A DNA stretch of 14,225 bases from a virus (Duplodnaviria > Heunggongvirae > Uroviricota > Caudoviricetes): the IMG/VR virus record IMGVR_UViG_2778261499_000007; one strand, written 5' to 3'. Below, in pieces: positions 1-14,225 of this stretch. Under the pieces are notes generated by a model. It was given only the letters and a program-made list of their open reading frames with translations, did not search any database and was not told the origin of the DNA. The position numbers and the translations under genes are program-made. Within the stretch, counting starts at the first letter, position 1, and every line of letters starts with the position of its first letter.

Positions 1-77
1 CCCCTCAGAGTGGATAGCTGCCAGTGTGGCGTAATTCAGGCCGCTATAGTGCTTTCCGTCATCCCAGCCAACCGCTA
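1..77. repeat. Terminal direct repeat, left copy (identical to 14149-14225)
   Basis: Base-by-base comparison: position 1 aligns with 14149 and position 77 with 14225; position 78 onward is unique. Confidence 0.9.
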
Positions 78-2925: not shown

Positions 2926-3255
2926 TTGATCACCTGCGATTTAAATTAACTCCCCTCAAAGAGTTCCGGTATAACCTCTCAAACCGCGACAGGCTCGGGC
3001 CGAAAAGTTATGCCGGAAATCTAAAGGGGGATTGATATAAGGAGAGGGAGATAGCCCCGCACCGTAGCCAAGCGGGGGCTATTCCACATGGGGAAACCGA
3101 CAACAGTCGGATGATAGTTCACAGTATGGGTTACGGTTACTAGAGAGCACTATCACGAAAGGCACTCCCCCGAATCAGTTCAGGCTGCGGTCACATCAGC
3201 GGGGAAATACCTTTCGGGATAGCTACCCACACAGAAAACCCGCAAAAGAAAACTG

Positions 3256-3264
3256 TGTGGATAA
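3256..3264. promoter_or_regulatory. Perfect DnaA-box 9-mer (TGTGGATAA)
   Basis: Exact consensus match within the 870-bp ORF-free leader upstream of the capsid operon. Confidence 0.25.
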
Positions 3265-3408
3265 CTAGCCCAATAGGAGAATTAATCGACCACTCAACGA
3301 TGATCAGGGTAGTGTTATTTATAGGGCGGCACCGCTACCTGGTCGCCTTTACTTTGGAGGAAAATATGGCAAATCAAGATCTTCTCAAATGATATTGATT
3401 CCATACTA

Positions 3409-3428
3409 TACTGTATATTATATCAGTA
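3409..3428. promoter_or_regulatory. LexA/SOS-box-like site (taCTGTatattataTCAGta)
   Basis: CTGT-N8-TCAG with an AT-only spacer; matches the E. coli SOS-box consensus CTGT-(AT)4-ACAG except the first base of the right half-site. Confidence 0.35.
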
Positions 3429-3775
3429 TTTACTCACATTGTCAACACCTTGATTATATAAATTCTAATAATTAGCGTAGTAACGGTATTTTCAGACCTC
3501 TATCAATCCCATCAATACGTCACCCCCACCCTTTAGATGCATACATCCGACCTACTTTGTAGGCTTGGCGTACTGCCAAGGTCGCAGCTATGCGACTCCT
3601 ATCTATCACCACTTTATAAAGCTTGATAGATATCTTTTGATCAATATCAATGTTTTCCGGGTATTTACCCGGCTATAGTTCGAATCAAGGAAGGGGAGCA
3701 TTGATAGAGACACCCAAAGGGGTGACTGAAAGTCACCTGGCATAGCCAGTGAAAGCACCCAACCGAACAAACAAA

Positions 3776-3790
3776 TCAACTTCTCGCAAA
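3776..3790 (+). promoter_or_regulatory. Conserved 15-nt motif TCAACTTCTCGCAAA, copy 1, immediately upstream of the RBS of the 3802 peptide
   Basis: Identical 15-mer at 4367-4381 and a near-identical copy (TCAACCTCTCGCGAG) at 13473-13487. Copies 1 and 2 sit at the same distance from an SD and ATG. Confidence 0.5.
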
Positions 3791-3801
3791 AGGTGATAGT
3801 T

Positions 3802-3924
3802 ATGGGTATCAAGAACAGTGCCAGCGCATGGCAAAAGGCCAGGTTTCATCACCCACACATTGTTAAGGCAATTGAGGTGGTTGGAGTTTTAGCCCTGATG
3901 TTAGCTCTGTGTGTGGAGGTGTGA
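3802..3924 (+). CDS. Small peptide, 40 aa, with hydrophobic C-terminal segment (MGIKNSASAWQKARFHHPHIVKAIEVVGVLALMLALCVEV)
   Basis: Below the ORF-track size cutoff; translated by hand. AGGTGA RBS with 5-nt spacing; predicted C-terminal transmembrane segment. Confidence 0.3.
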   Translation: MGIKNSASAWQKARFHHPHIVKAIEVVGVLALMLALCVEV

Positions 3925-3925
3925 G

Positions 3926-4006
3926 ATGGGCAAAGGAGGCAAAGCATTTTTAATAGGTCTGGCTATCCTGGATGTTCTACTAATCATGATTAAGCGGAGT
4001 TTATGA
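3926..4006 (+). CDS. Small hydrophobic peptide, 26 aa (MGKGGKAFLIGLAILDVLLIMIKRSL)
   Basis: Translated by hand. GGAGG at 3915-3919 with 6-nt spacing; ATG begins 1 nt after the preceding TGA; single predicted transmembrane helix. Confidence 0.25.
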   Translation: MGKGGKAFLIGLAILDVLLIMIKRSL

Positions 4007-4025
4007 ACAGCATTGAGAGGAGTTT

Positions 4026-4286: not shown

Positions 4287-4296
4287 TAGGAACAGG

Positions 4297-4336
4297 CCCG
4301 AAGGGCTTAGCTTTAGCTAAGGTCCTATCAGGACTC
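4297..4336. repeat. Right arm of the 40-bp inverted repeat (partner 1437-1476); hairpin-forming
   Basis: CCCGAAGGGCTTAGCTTTAGCTAAGGTCCT... is the reverse complement of 1437-1476 with about 4 mismatches; lies between the HTH gene stop and the next gene. Confidence 0.7.
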
Positions 4337-4366
4337 CCACACAGTCCAACAGGTTATTAACTAAAT

Positions 4367-4392: not shown

Positions 4393-5103
4393 ATGTTTAA
4401 AGGTCTTGTTGTTACGCTATTGGCTTGCATTGTATTTGGTCCATGGGTGTTAGTAATTGCTTTACCTATATTGCTGATCATGAGCTTAGGGAATGATATT
4501 AAAAAGCTGCATGCACAATATAAGGAGCATCCTGGAGCAGTCATAACAAGTCTGGTTATAGTCGCGGGGCTTATTGGCTGGGTCTACTTCTCTCTTCCCA
4601 CAGGAAATACAACTGCAAATGTAGAAGAGGCGAACGCACAGCATGAAGAAGTGGTTAACGTCGCCGACCTTACATGGGAGGACAGGGTAAAAGCATATAA
4701 ATATATTTATGGTGTGCTAGATTGCGATCTCTCTAAAGATATAGGATGCACAGATAAATACCAGATTCACGCCTGGCTGTGGAATCATGCAGAAAAAGGT
4801 GCTTGCAACCAGATTAAAGTGGCGGTTAACAGTGGGGCACCTACTGGGAAAAATAAAGATGTTCTGACGGTATGGTGCAAGGATGTAAAAGGCAATGATC
4901 GTTGGCTACAGATGCGCCACATGGACGGTGTAAGCATAGAAACTACACGAACGGCTCGATGGTATAACGGTGAACTCGTTCACGAAGCATGGCAGAATAA
5001 CGCCTGGATCACTGAGGGAACACTCCTGAATGTTGATATGGAAGCATTGAAGATGCTTAATGAGATGTACGGTGAAGCCGTAGAAACCTCTCCGATGAAA
5101 TAA
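4393..5103 (+). CDS. Membrane protein, 236 aa: N-terminal transmembrane helices and a Cys-containing C-terminal domain; function unknown
   Basis: ORF track; two long hydrophobic segments in the first 70 aa; several Cys in the C-terminal domain; followed by a strong terminator. Confidence 0.55.
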   Translation: MFKGLVVTLLACIVFGPWVLVIALPILLIMSLGNDIKKLHAQYKEHPGAVITSLVIVAGLIGWVYFSLPTGNTTANVEEANAQHEEVVNVADLTWEDRVKAYKYIYGVLDCDLSKDIGCTDKYQIHAWLWNHAEKGACNQIKVAVNSGAPTGKNKDVLTVWCKDVKGNDRWLQMRHMDGVSIETTRTARWYNGELVHEAWQNNAWITEGTLLNVDMEALKMLNEMYGEAVETSPMK

Positions 5104-5113
5104 CCACACCTAC

Positions 5114-5143
5114 CAGGGGCCATCACGGCCCCTTTTTATTTAT
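5114..5143 (+). terminator. Rho-independent terminator (AGGGGCC-atcac-GGCCCCT followed by TTTTATTTAT)
   Basis: Perfect 7-bp GC-rich stem, 5-nt loop and T-rich tail starting 11 nt after the stop of the 4393..5103 gene. Confidence 0.7.
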
Positions 5144-5200
5144 CCCCTATTTACACTCCTTTCAGTCCTGATCATCACTCCCTACCCCCTGATCAATTAA

Positions 5201-5250
5201 CCCCTATTTAAGGGGTATTTAATGGGTATTTAATGCCTATTTATTGATTT
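5201..5250. repeat. Phased tandem repeats of TATTTAA at about 11-bp period (4 to 5 copies), plus a second CCCCTATTTA copy at 5144-5153
   Basis: cccctatttaa / ggggtatttaat / gggtatttaat / gcctatttatt / gatttaat; periodicity of about one helical turn. Confidence 0.6.
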
Positions 5251-6486
5251 AATCCGTTTTATGCCACAACCGCCCGGTTGACAGAGTAAGAGAGAGGGTG
5301 TAACCCTTTTTCGTAATACTAATAAAATCAATAGCTTAGCTCAATTGGCCTTTTCTCTGTTTTTGTCAAATTTAACATACCCTAAAAAACTGCAAAATCT
5401 GGCTGCAAGATTATCTGCAGCTGGATTTCTTACACCTCAATTTGTGGTATCACCCTGACTAGTTTGTGCATAAAATGAACAGTTTTTAACATTTCCTCTT
5501 CACCTGGTAACCACACAAAAAGCTAAAAACGAGGCACAGATAATCTTAGAGGCCTGTTTTCTTGTTATCACTCTGGAAACGTCGTAGAAGTGATTTTGAT
5601 GAAAGATGACCTACCCTATTACACCCCCATTTTTTGTTATCACAATTGCATCCTGTGCGGTGTATGGCTGTGTGCTGAAAGCGGTCTTGGGTGTGGGTGT
5701 CAGAAATATCCATTAGCGGTATTAATACCCGTCAGATGTTCGTCTGAGGTGCCAGGCAGGCGCTCCCCCACCTCCCTTTTTTCTTCTAACAATTCTCAAA
5801 TATCACACCACTGCCGACCACGTTACTACTCTGTTAATTCTTAAGCTTTGCTGTATGTTGTGCACATTATTTATTCAGGTGCGTGTACGTAAATTCTGGG
5901 CCTCCTTATCATGATTTTTAAATCAGATTTTGTAGTTCGGTTTCTTAGTGTAGATAAGATCTATTATGTTAAATGCAATTTTCCCAACCCTTCAAATCAA
6001 TGACTTACATGTAAGCATGCACTAACACCCCACACAGCACATTAGACGTATAGATGGCTATATCCCACATTTTTGATTGTTTTGTAGTCATTCCCCTGAT
6101 CATTTAACCAGTATAGTTTGTTCTTTGCAGACCACAAAATCGGAATTTACATCTGATTAACATAATCTGTTAGCATGATCACTATTACCCACACAACAAT
6201 AACCCCATGCAAGACTCTTCAGGCAATTTATCGGCGTGTTGGTGTGAACAGTCTTTCATGTTCTTTATGTTTTCATTGTCCTGTGTGAGGGAAGGATGGA
6301 CTGCCCCAGGGGCCACACTTATGATGCCCGGTCAACATAGCTATTGATAAAATCAACGGGTGTTGATCTGCATATTTCCCACACATGAGAGGAAATCAGA
6401 GCAAAGAGAGAGGAGAGAGGTTTGCTAGTCAAAATAGGTCAATTGACGGCTAATACAGAGTAAAAAATCAGATGCAATCACTCCCC

Positions 6487-6669
6487 ACCTGTTGGGATTT
6501 CCCGCACCTGTATAAGAATACAGTCATACTTTCCCGTTATACGGTCATACACATGATGGAATAACCTGTTGGAATTTCCTACAGGTTTAACCATACACAG
6601 GAGCTAACCTGTTGGAATTTCCTACTACTACCTGTCGGTATTTCCCACAGGTACCTGTTGGAATTTCCC
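6487..6669. repeat. Iteron array (5 copies of ACCTGTTGGAATTTCCY at 6487, 6564, 6607, 6630, 6653), candidate replication origin
   Basis: Near-identical 17-mers; the last three are spaced 23 bp apart; ACCTGT/ACAGGT inverted half-sites; followed by an AT-rich tract (6670-6710) and, 1.3 kb downstream, Rep-like genes. Confidence 0.7.
6508..6523. promoter_or_regulatory. Canonical SOS-box pattern CTGT-N8-ACAG (CTGTATAAGAATACAG) inside the iteron region
   Basis: Exact CTGT and ACAG half-sites with an 8-nt A/T-rich spacer. May partly reflect the iteron ACCTGT/ACAGGT half-sites. Confidence 0.35.
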
Positions 6670-6797
6670 ACACTAATAGATAAAGAGAATAGATCAATAA
6701 AAAGAACTCCCCCTATAATCCCCCAACAAGGGGGGATGGGGAGGGATCAGAGAGTGGGGAAGGTTTTCTAAGGGAAAAGCTTAACCCACAAATGAAA

Positions 6798-6826
6798 GCC
6801 TAAAGAGCATTAGCGACTCTTTAGGC
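6798..6826. other. Perfect 10-bp stem hairpin (GCCTAAAGAG-N9-CTCTTTAGGC), part of a highly structured ORF-free stretch (about 6790-7100)
   Basis: Exact inverted repeat. Nearby are GGTGAC-N21-GTCACC (6840-6872), TTAAGCC-tct-GGCTTAA, GTCCGGA-N20-TCCGGAC and tandem 17-mers at 6826-6843 and 6873-6889. Confidence 0.5.
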
Positions 6827-7231
6827 AATCTGTGTGTGGGGTGACAATGTATTCCATACATGACACGTCACCCAATTGTGTGTGGGGTGCTTACAGCACT
6901 TAAGCCTCTGGCTTAACCCTTCGGGCCTCTGTGTGGGAAGCGTAGTGCGATAGCACGTAGCTTTATAATGTGGAGTCCGGATAAGAGACTTCTGTTTCCA
7001 ATCCGGACCGTTTAAGCGAGGGATTCCGCTCGCCCGTGTATGCACACACGTAATAGGACGCTCAGAAATCGATTTTAAGGCCCAAAACGGGGCCTACAGC
7101 AACCTAAACCATACTCCATAGTGCAATTGCATTGCCTGATGCTTAAATCGCGTTGTAGGGCATCTCATGAGGTTTGAGTTTAACACCCTCCAAAGTTTTA
7201 ACAAAAAGTGCTCTCCCTCCATTGTGGGCCA

Positions 7232-7261
7232 TTGACAATCTTATTGCATAAATGCTATAAG
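7232..7261 (+). promoter_or_regulatory. Sigma70-like promoter (TTGACA-N18-TATAAG)
   Basis: Consensus -35 hexamer with a 5-of-6 match -10 at 18-nt spacing. One of five (A/T)TTGACAAT-type repeats in 7230-7560. Confidence 0.4.
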
Positions 7262-7551
7262 TGATTCTGGTTTTGACACGGTAGGGGCCATTAATAATGT
7301 TTACCCCTTTGCTGTGGACTTGCTTGCACCTATAGCACACCTAAATGATAATAATTCTCATTGACAATTGGTTGACAATATGATAAGATTATAAATAGGG
7401 GGAGAAACAGATCCGGAGGTCAATGTGGAAATTACTGATGCAATAGCGATCATCAACCTGGCTGTACTGTGGTGCGGTGTTGCCTACATAGCCGGAGTAA
7501 CTGCAATCGACAATCTCGAAGAAAAAATGATAGATAAATACAAAAAGATTG

Positions 7552-7580
7552 TTGACAATTTGACGAATGTCTGATAAAAT
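7552..7580 (+). promoter_or_regulatory. Sigma70-like promoter (TTGACA-N17-TAAAAT) about 125 nt upstream of the 7706 gene
   Basis: Consensus -35 and near-consensus -10 at optimal spacing, oriented toward the replication gene block. Confidence 0.45.
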
Positions 7581-7705
7581 ATAAAGCATAGGGTAATTCT
7601 CATCATAGTGAATTTCCTTAAACAAAAATGCGGGGGCTTGTCTTAAGTTCCCGTTTCTTTTTAACCGTATATCGCACAGGCGGTGAGCTGACAGGAGATT
7701 GAATC

Positions 7706-7915: not shown

Positions 7916-7939
7916 TAAATAATCTTGGAGGATCATATT

Positions 7940-8326
7940 ATGGCAAATAACGATGAAAATTTTACTCCCTTTTTTAAACGTTTCATCAAATACACTTTTA
8001 AAAATCCGATTGCAAAAACTGCAACCAATAAAGAAAGATTTCACTTAAATGTGTTGGAGGTAACAATTTATGGTGAAATGGTAAGTTATTCTTTTAAGGA
8101 GGGTGAAGAAATAATTATCTCAGAGCTCTCGACGCAGACATTAGCAGACGATTATGATGTTACAGAGAAAACAGTAAGGTCGGCTATCAAAACATTAGAG
8201 GCTGCAGGTCTGATAAACGTTAAACGAGAACAGGGCAAATCGAATATCTACGAATTGCTAATTACCCCTGATCAGCTTGGCAAGATGTGCGATGAGCAGG
8301 GTATTAGAGAATATTTTATATATTAA
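7940..8326 (+). CDS. Rep-like winged-helix protein, short paralog (about 128 aa); replication-initiator-type HTH
   Basis: Segment ISELSTQTLADDYDVTEKTVRSAIKTLEAAGLINVKREQGKSNIYELL fits the winged-helix pattern of phage/plasmid replication initiators. GGAGG RBS before the ATG at 7940 (track start 7925 is a TTG). Paralogous to the next gene. Confidence 0.5.
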   Translation: MANNDENFTPFFKRFIKYTFKNPIAKTATNKERFHLNVLEVTIYGEMVSYSFKEGEEIIISELSTQTLADDYDVTEKTVRSAIKTLEAAGLINVKREQGKSNIYELLITPDQLGKMCDEQGIREYFIY

Positions 8327-8337
8327 TGGGGGGAACT

Positions 8338-9258
8338 ATGGCAGGAAATAAACTGGGGGCACCTTTTACCCCCTCTTTCGATTTCTTTATTCAGTATGAT
8401 TTTGATAAACCAGTAGCAACAACAATTTCTAATAAAAAGACTGGAACAGTTAAAGAGCGCTTCTATTTAACAGACTTTGAAATGTTGATTTATGGAAAAA
8501 TGGTGGGATTTCATTTTAACGGTGAGGGAATTTATATTTCAGAGCAAAAACTGGCAACTCAACTCAGAAAGGATCGCGGGAAAATAGTAAGCGCTATTAA
8601 ATCTCTGGAAAATGCCGGGCTTATTTCTAAAGATAGCCGGAAAGGCATGTCTAATAATTACAAATTGCTGAAAACCCCTGATCAATTGTTGGATATGTGC
8701 ATTGAGAAGGGCGTAAATATTCCAGAAGGCATCTTAGAGACTTTCGGAAAGACTGCCGCTAAAGTAGAACAGCCTCAGGAAGCCCCAAAACAAGCCACAC
8801 AGCAAGCTAAAAAGGCTAAAGTAGTGCAATTGCCTACCCAAGACACTAAAGCGCCTCAAATTAACGCTGTTAGTGACAAGCCACGCCGGGGCCGTCCTGT
8901 GAAAGATGTCACCGATGGAGGCTGGATCGTCCTGGGTGAGAGTGAGGCTAAAGGCATAATGCGATCACTGTGGGAAAGCAAATACAAAGATTTAAACAAA
9001 CGTCGCCCGATCCTTTTGTCAAAGATTCAGGAGGATTTTTACACCGCAGAAGAGGTAAGCCAACATAAAGGGAAAAGAGAGGGTGAAATCTGGAAACCGG
9101 AAGAATACTGGCATTTAACCAGACCTGTGTTTATTTTTGCAAATAAGCTTATTGGGATGGGATTTGAAATATTGTTGGATAAAACCTGCGGAGATTATCC
9201 CGAAATATTGTGGAGAAATGTTAGAAAAAATAAAAAAGGCATTTTAGAGTTTAAATAA
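8338..9258 (+). CDS. Rep-like replication initiator, long paralog (about 306 aa) with a C-terminal extension
   Basis: N-terminal 120 aa parallels the preceding gene (MA.N...FTP.F...; ...SAIKSLENAGLISKDSRKGMSNNYKLL). The previous stop overlaps an upstream ATG at 8326 (TAATG); 8338 is preceded by a G-rich SD. Iterons lie upstream. Confidence 0.5.
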   Translation: MAGNKLGAPFTPSFDFFIQYDFDKPVATTISNKKTGTVKERFYLTDFEMLIYGKMVGFHFNGEGIYISEQKLATQLRKDRGKIVSAIKSLENAGLISKDSRKGMSNNYKLLKTPDQLLDMCIEKGVNIPEGILETFGKTAAKVEQPQEAPKQATQQAKKAKVVQLPTQDTKAPQINAVSDKPRRGRPVKDVTDGGWIVLGESEAKGIMRSLWESKYKDLNKRRPILLSKIQEDFYTAEEVSQHKGKREGEIWKPEEYWHLTRPVFIFANKLIGMGFEILLDKTCGDYPEILWRNVRKNKKGILEFK

Positions 9259-13293: not shown

Positions 13294-13395
13294 TGTCCAC
13301 TCTGTGGATTTGAGTTCTACTCAAACCTGCATAGCAGGCACTGATATTGTGATCAAAATCAATAAGTTAGCCTGACCGGACAAACTCCAGGCAAG

Positions 13396-13845: not shown

Positions 13846-14225
13846 TCAGCCTCTACCTACATTTGACCAATACTTGATTGCACCGATCAAATCATCATAG
13901 TGGCGCATTGCATCATTGAAGCCTTTATAGCTTGCCCATTGTGGTGAAACCTTGTTATTGCTGAATTGCCCACTAATCAGGATAGTCTCCAAAATGTCGG
14001 CATATCGCTTACCAATACGCTTTCTGACGGCCTCAGAGCTCCCACCCTTTACGATTGCATTAATCAGGGCTTTTGTGTGTCTCAGGCTCTCATAGAGCAT
14101 TGCAGCGTGGGCAGATTCCATAAAGGAGCGCTTAGGCAGATCACCCCACCCCTCAGAGTGGATAGCTGCCAGTGTGGCGTAATTCAGGCCGCTATAGTGC
14201 TTTCCGTCATCCCAGCCAACCGCTA
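13846..14225 (-). CDS. Hypothetical protein, C-terminal part (...MESAHAAMLYESLRHTKALINAIVKGGSSEAVRKRIGKRYADILETILISGQFSNNKVSPQWASYKGFNDAMRHYDDLIGAIKYWSNVGRG); same gene as 1-156 if circular (about 152 aa total)
   Basis: The frame is open from the window end down to the TGA at 13846-13848; the upstream portion is supplied in frame by 156->1 through the 77-bp junction. Confidence 0.5.
   Translation of the reverse strand, partial: AVGWDDGKHYSGLNYATLAAIHSEGWGDLPKRSFMESAHAAMLYESLRHTKALINAIVKGGSSEAVRKRIGKRYADILETILISGQFSNNKVSPQWASYKGFNDAMRHYDDLIGAIKYWSNVGRG
14149..14225. repeat. Terminal direct repeat, right copy (identical to 1-77)
   Basis: Same 77-mer as the window start; consistent with a circular contig written with overlap, or a direct terminal repeat. 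Confidence 0.9.

Follow-up and report, generated by a model that had tools for sequence, protein, structure and literature searches.

What is the function of a 2.6-kb, largely gene-free tract in a viral element of only 14 kb? The tract occupies positions 5104–7705 of the IMG/VR record IMGVR_UViG_2778261499_000007, whose full 14,225 nucleotides we refer to as the window. An earlier, sequence-only reading regarded the tract, its iterons set aside, as a single locus free of open reading frames (ORFs) and rich in hairpins and tandem 17-mers, and proposed that it encodes antisense or immunity RNAs or, alternatively, carries packaging signals. Our best reading is that the tract combines a replication origin with end or packaging signals related to those of a helper phage, and that these act in cis as DNA. 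That the whole tract is a cis-acting control region, assembled as a mosaic of parts in a satellite plasmid of rV5-like phages, we hold with slightly better than even confidence; packaging signals are a better lead than RNA or immunity.

The first and last 77 nt of the window (1–77 and 14149–14225) are identical, and the window thus represents a complete circle of 14148 bp. The element is 91–95% identical to a family of circular, non-mobilizable Escherichia coli plasmids of 13.2–13.7 kb, and members of the family are on record as circular plasmids of 13–14 kb. It encodes major capsid, Dit-like tail, tape-measure and tail-completion proteins together with a lambda-O-like initiator. The structural proteins are nearest those of the virulent rV5-like phages (Vequintavirus), with identities to phage naam of 50% for the Dit-like, 44% for the tail-completion, 25% for the tape-measure and 24% for the capsid protein. 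No ORF matched a terminase or portal protein in Pfam or PHROGs, and no sheath or tube protein was recognised among the element's ORFs, several small ones of which lack an assignment. From this gene content we infer that the element is a plasmid-borne satellite of rV5-like phages, its presumed helpers. The exact sequence of a 49-aa protein encoded in the tract is recorded in 1657 sample blocks, 1292 of these with contigs of 10–20 kb, indicating that the plasmid family is common. Vibrio (PLE, PICMI) and a few other hosts are known to harbour satellites of virulent phages; in the literature searched, we found no paper describing this plasmid family and no report of a satellite of a virulent E. 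coli myovirus. The tract appears to be the cis-acting region of a phage satellite, a known kind of element, and the satellite family itself appears to be undescribed.

Family alignments, of 9 and then 20 members, divide the tract into zones. Positions 5104–5225 are variable, diversity falls to 0.052 over 5226–6425, rises to 0.27 over 6426–7325, and 7326–7575 is conserved. The 5226–6425 block is conserved as strongly as the structural genes, whereas no other DNA of the element varies as much as 6426–7325, which contains every hairpin flagged previously. The picture of one locus from which the iterons can be set aside is not sustained: the tract is a mosaic, and the hairpins sit in the replication-origin module. 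Most of the tract is indeed gene-poor, but the 49-aa gene at its right end is real and is preceded by a ribosome-binding site (RBS), a feature that the sequence-only reading denied to the ORFs of the tract.

What constrains the conserved block? Its diversity is less than half of that at third codon positions of backbone genes (0.11–0.12), which argues that the block is under constraint. Hidden coding was ruled out because substitutions in the block show no codon periodicity, in contrast to the strongly periodic capsid-gene control, and because none of the block's ORFs combines an intact frame in all members with periodicity; every ORF of at least 20 aa in 5226–6453 is interrupted in some relatives or shows no periodic substitution pattern. 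One 30-codon ORF (5911–6003, + strand) is a weak exception: 19 of 20 members keep it intact, and its variable sites are skewed to third positions (1, 3 and 7 at the three codon positions); it lacks an RBS and is probably a chance occurrence.

Structured RNA was rejected for the block as well. Alignment-fold z-scores are mostly near 0 (~0 over 5426–6090), 5500–6100 folds worse than its shuffles (z = +2.5), and the few alignment-fold windows with z of −3 to −6 contain zero compensatory pairs among the predicted pairs. A covariance-model scan of the whole window against Rfam at E values up to 1 returned two weak, terminator-like partial matches and nothing credible, and neither tRNA nor tmRNA genes were detected in the window or in the terminal non-coding box of the phage described below. 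An RNA or immunity locus is thus unsupported for most of the tract, and as a reading of the tract it is weakly supported. The block does contain an invariant 13-bp inverted repeat (5395–5432); all its pairs are invariant and, read as double-stranded DNA, its arms have two mismatches. It is a candidate protein-binding site.

The most invariant part of the block resembles the left genome end of the rV5-like phages. The segment contains, in order, GTGTGGG (5691), CAGAAATATCC (5701–5711), TGCCA|GGCAGGC (5750–5761) and the 25-mer TTCTTCTAACAATTCTCAAATATCA (5781–5805). The phage left end reads TGCCA|GGCGGAC...TTCTTATAAYAATTCTCAAATATC and matches satellite positions 5750–5805 in an nhmmer search with E = 0.003; 23 of the 25 core bases agree. 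By analogy, a cut site may lie at 5754|5755. A 120-nt window centred on the phage left end reached a local-alignment score of 21, which none of 200 dinucleotide shuffles attained (highest score 18; p<0.005), while control windows from the right repeat boundary and from elsewhere in the phage box had no match in the satellite. The 25-mer is identical in 20 of 20 satellites except for the last base in two, and in the 8 phages examined it is conserved apart from two variable positions. In IMG/VR, the end pattern was found once, in a Vequintavirus fragment; a pattern scan of metagenomes was unspecific, its 120 matches being mostly due to chance, with one satellite and one phage among them. An element without a terminase, the most invariant part of whose non-coding block matches the left end of a helper-type phage, lends support to the earlier suggestion of packaging signals.

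On the rV5 map, the corresponding phage region is a box between ORFs 163 and 164 labelled just ‘non-coding’ (PMC3606486). The HdK5 record begins and ends with an exact 459-bp repeat that maps inside this box, which places the physical ends of the phage within it; terminal redundancies of 458 bp were described for two Vequintaviruses (Korf et al., PMC6563267). We compared the box in the sequence L012 (2155–4647, equivalent to 99218–101710 of phage naam) and in L028–L033. It is 94–100% conserved left of and within the 459-bp repeat and hypervariable for ~500 nt just past the repeat end (HdK5 orientation), where arrays of GGCAACTAT and TTTACA repeats accompany a hairpin cassette. An Rfam scan of the phage box returned nothing credible.

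Other sequences are common to the two non-coding regions. They have 25 words of at least 10 nt in common, compared with 6.3 in shuffles, and TGTGTGGG is the top jointly enriched k-mer. The excess of GTGTGGG/CCCACAC noted earlier was borne out, with 13 copies in the window against 1.06 expected and none of 200 shuffles reaching 13. The strand that carries TGTGTGGG switches at the iterons in the 11 members fetched in window orientation, from bottom on their left to top on their right; the copy at 6188 has CCCACACAACAA in common with the terminal repeat of the phage. A 52-nt stretch (3704–3755) in the plasmid's second ORF-free gap is closely similar to an unannotated stretch of rV5-like phages; the latter sits within 2.5 kb of gene-free phage DNA towards which the genes on both sides converge. 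Three same-strand nhmmer matches at first suggested a colinear homology block with the phage box; after a phage-profile search and the word analysis, we dropped this claim because the similarity is patchy and of mixed orientation. The tract gives access to the rV5 box, which has been mapped since 2013 without a function (PMC3606486), and the short sequences common to phage and satellite are obvious candidates for end-recognition or processing signals.

Right of the block, positions 6485–6826 are best read as a replication origin (Table 1), in which the iterons would be the binding-site array for the initiator encoded downstream. The AT-rich and C/G stretch is presumed to be the DNA-unwinding part. 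The perfect 10-bp stem of the sequence-only reading is present (GCCTAAAGAG/CTCTTTAGGC); this palindrome resembles a − strand terminator, is followed by TTTCATTTGT and is flanked by inverted CCCACAAAT/ATCTGTGTGTGGG. In one member (L008), its loop is inverted with the stems kept. The initiator, a 310-aa protein (8326–9258), and a 133-aa paralogue match O-like/replication-initiation families of PHROG and Pfam HTH_36; the paralogue, a winged-helix protein resembling the initiator N-terminus (7925–8326), is absent from most relatives (alignment gap fraction 0.78). Among 19 members we distinguish about six iteron types, most of which track clusters of the initiator N-terminus. This joint change of iteron and initiator type is the signature of a cognate origin–initiator pair exchanged as a module. 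There are two exceptions: L021 and L025 have the same iteron with initiators ~70% identical, and L006 and L023 have a second origin module inserted. The latter insertion, ~400–500 nt long and located after the G-rich tract (about window position 6770), brings different iteron-like repeats and an unrelated initiator, and the old iterons are kept. An origin marked by DnaA boxes was considered and discarded, as such boxes are mildly enriched in the window and do not cluster at the origin.

The hairpins right of the palindrome exceed chance. Perfect stems of at least 7 bp in 6790–7130 amount to 8 stem windows (4 hairpins), compared with 0.42 in mononucleotide shuffles (maximum 5), and 6795–7130 folds better than dinucleotide shuffles on both strands (z = −5.2 for +, −3.7 for −). 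The abundance of structure claimed for the tract as a whole therefore applies to this part, but not to the larger 5226–6425 part, which has no excess. Individual motifs were mostly as described: GGTGAC-N21-GTCACC is present at 6840–6872, and the GTCCGGA-N20-TCCGGAC pair lies one base from its approximate earlier placement. The near-identical 17-mers CAATCTGTGTGTGGGGTG (6826–6843) and CAATTGTGTGTGGGGTG (6873–6889) exist, but they are direct repeats 47 nt apart and not strictly tandem.

Cutting 20 sequences after each TGTGTGGG resolves this region into an array of cassettes of 37 to ~95 nt that belong to a handful of types, and the 17-mers turn out to be junctions of the array. Cassette A, GGGGTGAC...GTCACCC (6838–6873), contains the GGTGAC hairpin; cassette B (6883–6940) is a triple hairpin; and in place of cassette E other members have the unrelated cassette F. 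Presence and order of cassettes A–F vary among 19 family members that are otherwise ~95% identical plasmids. The commonest cassette consists of three consecutive hairpins. In six variants with two modelled stems, 100% of positions are paired and 11 of 12 pairs show compensatory double changes, with no one-sided change and no G-U pair. Across 16 distinct copies, in an alignment fitted to the model, 99.5% are paired, with 50 double changes and 0 G-U pairs in 188 cells. Hairpin structure is clearly under selection; compensatory changes are present in the cassettes, with no G-U intermediates, and absent from the predicted pairs of the conserved block.

A covariance model built from the array located dispersed triple-hairpin copies elsewhere in the window (Table 1). 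In the 137-kb phage genome it found two copies only, both in the terminal box, one of them the counterpart of the 52-nt element; phage JLBYU08 alone has an extra cassette ~15 nt from its left end. Strict Watson-Crick pairing, occurrence in both orientations and rapid turnover point to hairpins or palindromes acting as DNA, and we infer that the cassettes are not an RNA regulator. Satellite and presumed helper have this hairpin-cassette system in common. A CRISPR array was rejected because the repeat is just 8–10 nt, the ‘spacers’ are a small set of hairpin cassettes and cas genes are absent.

Table 1. Features of the tract at 5104–7705 and related features elsewhere in the window.
Feature	Positions	Strand	Basis or details
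Intrinsic terminator of the 236-aa gene	5115–5143	+	7-bp GC-rich stem, then T-run
Variable junction	5129–5260		Gapped, variable among relatives
Conserved non-coding block, family backbone	5226–6425		Diversity 0.052; no periodicity, no structure
Invariant 13-bp inverted repeat AAATCTGGCTGCA...TGCAGCTGGATTT	5395–5432		RNAalifold, G-U allowed
Segment resembling the helper left genome end	5685–5808	+	nhmmer, shuffles
CCCACAC(A) copies (TGTGTGGG on the − strand)	6029, 6188, 6378 (6029–6384)	−	Motif count
Five 21-bp iterons, core CCTGTTGGAATTTCC	6485–6671	+	Direct repeats in one orientation
AT-rich stretch (6674–6706) and C5/G6 tract CCCCC-AACAA-GGGGGG (6720–6735)	6674–6735		Kept in all members
Perfect 10-bp palindrome	6798–6826		Sequence
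Cassettes A and B	6826–6940	+	Each closed by (C)TGTGTGGG(G)
Cassette E and more hairpins	6941–7130		AGCGTAGTGC...GCACGTAGCT; GTCCGGA pair (6975–7008); GCGAG...CTCGC; GGCCC...GGGCC
Promoter-like TTGACA-18-TATAAG with TGn	7232–7261	+	By eye; not in the promoter scan; absent from about half of members
Overlapping divergent promoter-like sites	7351–7389		95–98% conserved
49-aa protein gene	7425–7574	+	GGAGG RBS 5 nt upstream; RefSeq annotation
Second promoter TTGACA-17-TAAAAT with TG (7552–7580) and intrinsic terminator (7630–7662)	7552–7662	+	Hairpin and T-run conserved
Hairpin cassette like one in the phage terminal box	3704–3755	−	88–90% identity; cassette-model match
Dispersed triple-hairpin cassette copies	975–1045, 1435–1486, 4292–4338, 13296–13328	+, +, −, +	Covariance model

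How might these parts work together? In uninfected cells, the plasmid would replicate from the iteron origin, probably in theta mode, by means of its lambda-O-like initiator. The conserved block would carry signals copied from the terminal non-coding box of the helper, with 5750–5805 imitating the left end. Upon infection by an rV5-like phage, the helper terminase may recognise, and perhaps cut, this end-like sequence in plasmid concatemers, and plasmid DNA would then be packaged into capsids made of the capsid protein that the plasmid itself encodes. At the DNA level, the cassettes and TGTGTGGG could be sites that a helper or host factor recognises or processes, or else modules for recombination. 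A more specific version is that the family is an undescribed, very common rV5-like satellite whose tract carries the cis-code of the phage box, composed of the end-recognition sequence, TGTGTGGG and mobile triple-hairpin cassettes of a new class, and that the cassettes act in terminal-repeat processing or packaging and are traded between helper and satellite; we offer this version tentatively and think it more probably wrong than right.

Several points weigh against the reading as an origin joined to helper-related end signals. The match to the helper is short, extending over ~55 nt of which 25 form the core, and the other similarity to the phage box is patchy, not colinear and of mixed orientation. 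A phage profile searched against the whole window gave a top match of E = 0.14 only, and profile and window searches revealed no counterpart of the helper right repeat boundary in the satellite. The helper relationship of rV5-like phages to the plasmid rests on homology. The covariation of the hairpins is equally expected for RNA stems, and the zero count of G-U pairs comes from ~16 copies that are distinct yet related and were aligned to the model. For the conserved block, tests of covariation are low-powered because only close relatives are available: protein searches retrieved relatives of at least 94% identity and one 82% lineage, capsid-protein scans of viral and genome collections yielded no more distant ones, and blastn ‘distant’ searches with the conserved block returned the same plasmids. 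The 82% lineage, identified by its capsid protein, is a Logan contig (SRR3146357, L009) of 4875 nt that stops short of the tract.

The matched phage sequence could also serve replication or transcription and not packaging. If the box holds the phage origin or early promoters, helper proteins might amplify the plasmid or switch its genes on through the same signals. The similarities to the helper fit this idea too, iteron-like repeats (GGCAACTAT, TTTACA) adjoin the terminal repeat in the phage box, and the cassette at 3704–3755 lies between divergent operons of the plasmid. However, the best match is at the physical end of the phage and not at the repeat arrays, the plasmid is already equipped with a complete origin and an initiator, and the phage box, with its flanking genes converging on it, is no promoter region for those genes; we regard this explanation as improbable. 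Also unlikely, in our view, is an RNA locus in which the cassettes and the palindrome belong to non-coding transcripts that control replication or immunity, as P4 CI RNA or antisense copy-number RNAs do, or form protective or terminating hairpins at mRNA 3′ ends. Strong excess folding of 6795–7130 on both strands and compensatory changes in the cassette hairpins are what such a locus would display; a leftward transcript from the promoter-like site at 7378–7351 to the terminator-like hairpin at 6826–6798, both on the − strand, is a candidate, and dispersed cassettes lie just past stop codons at 13296, 4292 and 1486, the usual site of 3′-end hairpins. Yet no Rfam family emerged at E up to 1, G-U pairs are missing from 188 cells, the cassettes are oriented once sense and three times antisense to local transcription, and no U-tracts follow them. 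Gain and loss of cassettes between 95% identical plasmids would be odd for an essential regulator, the phage cassettes are confined to the terminal box and not found behind genes generally, and the larger conserved block has no structure signal.

The turnover of the cassettes raises the further question of whether they have any role in the plasmid. They may be selfish or recombination repeats, akin to REP/BIME or MITE sequences, that are moved by a hairpin-processing enzyme of helper or host or shuffled at TGTGTGGG; they would then build up where the DNA can tolerate them and serve the plasmid in no dedicated way. Intergenic, dispersed positions in both orientations, polymorphic presence, strict Watson-Crick palindromy, the JLBYU08-only insertion near the genome end and the coincidence of variable patches of the family alignment with cassette sites are all in line with such repeats. 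In contrast, the element encodes no transposase or recombinase, RAYT and TnpA included, although a ‘transposase-like protein’ is annotated in phage naam; TGTGTGGG also occurs without hairpins, and its inverted arrangement on the two sides of the origin suggests a function. Restriction of the phage cassettes to the terminal box argues in the same direction, and selfish repeats would account for only ~15% of the tract. This explanation strikes us as quite unlikely.

Known systems provide partial parallels to the combination of origin and helper-related end signals. PLE of Vibrio cholerae, whose helper is ICP1, likewise depends on a virulent phage, lacks a terminase and has its own replication initiator. 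Its imitation of the ICP1 pac site spans 89 bp, is 71% identical and includes a core of 14 identical bp (PMC11071384). Both elements thus place a short, partial imitation of a helper packaging sequence beside their own iteron origin, here over ~55 nt with a core of 23/25. PLE, however, is integrated in the chromosome and excises, whereas the present element is a free plasmid; PLE steals the ICP1 coat protein, whereas this plasmid encodes capsid, tape-measure, Dit-like and tail-completion proteins; and ICP1 packages by headful from pac, whereas the rV5-like helper has fixed ends with a 459-bp terminal repeat. The pac function of PLE is experimentally proven, while a packaging function here is deduced from sequence.

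P4, the satellite of P2, is small, can live as a plasmid, uses the cos of P2 and has non-coding control DNA. Both are satellites of 11–14 kb, capable of plasmid life, with helper-type packaging signals and non-coding control DNA. Unlike P4, the present element matches no curated RNA family and its non-coding block gives no sign of RNA structure; we saw neither an integrase nor an alpha primase nor a P4-type ori/crr in it, and its helper is virulent. The lambda origin consists of iterons, an AT-rich stretch and a palindrome. The order is the same here, as are an O-like initiator by PHROG and an iteron specificity that tracks initiator type, but lambda ori lies inside gene O, whereas here the iterons precede the initiator gene by 1.6 kb, and the present origin is flanked by inverted TGTGTGGG arrays. 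At concatemer junctions of the T7/T3 type, the terminal repeat lies in non-coding DNA, and flanking short repeats and palindromes are thought to act in end processing; the rV5-like box, with its terminal repeat in non-coding DNA and its repeat arrays, is similar in layout, a relationship in sequence not being expected. The cassettes resemble REP/BIME and IS200/IS605-type elements as short, strain-polymorphic intergenic hairpin repeats with a short conserved flanking motif. They differ in the absence of RAYT/TnpA from the element and in a unit of three hairpins with a TGTGTGGG tail; unlike REP/BIME, the cassette family also occurs in a virulent phage, and there in the terminal box only. If rV5-type phages, which are used in typing and therapy, package these plasmids, the plasmids would constitute a route of gene spread and a factor in phage efficacy.

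The right end of the tract (7232–7705) is ordinary expression control. The divergent sites comprise P(+), TTGACA-17-TAAGAT (7361–7389), and P(−), TTGTCA-16-AATTAT (7378–7351), and a repeated TTGACAAT is common to two or three of the promoter-like sites. The diversity of the 49-aa gene at its three codon positions is 0.022, 0.029 and 0.104; its product, read as a membrane protein, has one hydrophobic helix and no family match. The second promoter sits within the end of this gene, and the terminator that follows is located just upstream of a 69-aa gene and the initiator operon. These sequences could form a short leader or attenuator, or a ~75-nt RNA, ahead of the replication operon; the sole Rfam echo here is a partial match that covers just the terminator.

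At the left end, the variable junction contains direct repeats CCCCT...CCCCTATTTA (5129–5153 and 5186–5210) and TATTTAAT-like repeats spaced by ~11 bp (5204–5245). The adjoining gene (4393–5103) encodes a predicted 236-aa membrane protein and occupies a hypervariable slot, in which the alleles of relatives are unrelated or shortened (173, 195 or 236 aa; ~40–50% identity with many gaps). The 236-aa protein has no family match and no defence-system match, and defence-system models matched none of the genes adjoining the tract.

Some family members carry resistance transposons: a 30-kb contig (L010) has strA/strB-type and tet genes, and a 79-kb contig (L034) has Tn3 with a beta-lactamase gene inserted in the tape-measure gene. 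Both were considered as integration junctions that might mark the ends of the element, but they are transposon insertions or cointegrates and uninformative on the tract. NZ_CP043822.1 (39.6 kb) contains three head-to-tail copies of the element and a 26.7-kb contig (L035) two; these are true multimers or assembly products.

The second ORF-free gap (2926–4025) has a perfect sigma-70 promoter, TTGACA-17-TATAAT with TG, on the − strand at 3445–3417, which gives a ~485-nt leader before the 111-aa/capsid operon. The leader folds strongly (minimum free energy −172.6, z = −4.5; alignment-fold z = −6 at 2926–3045) and may represent a structured RNA. Its conservation is extreme at 3151–3375, and it contains a perfect DnaA box at 3256–3264.

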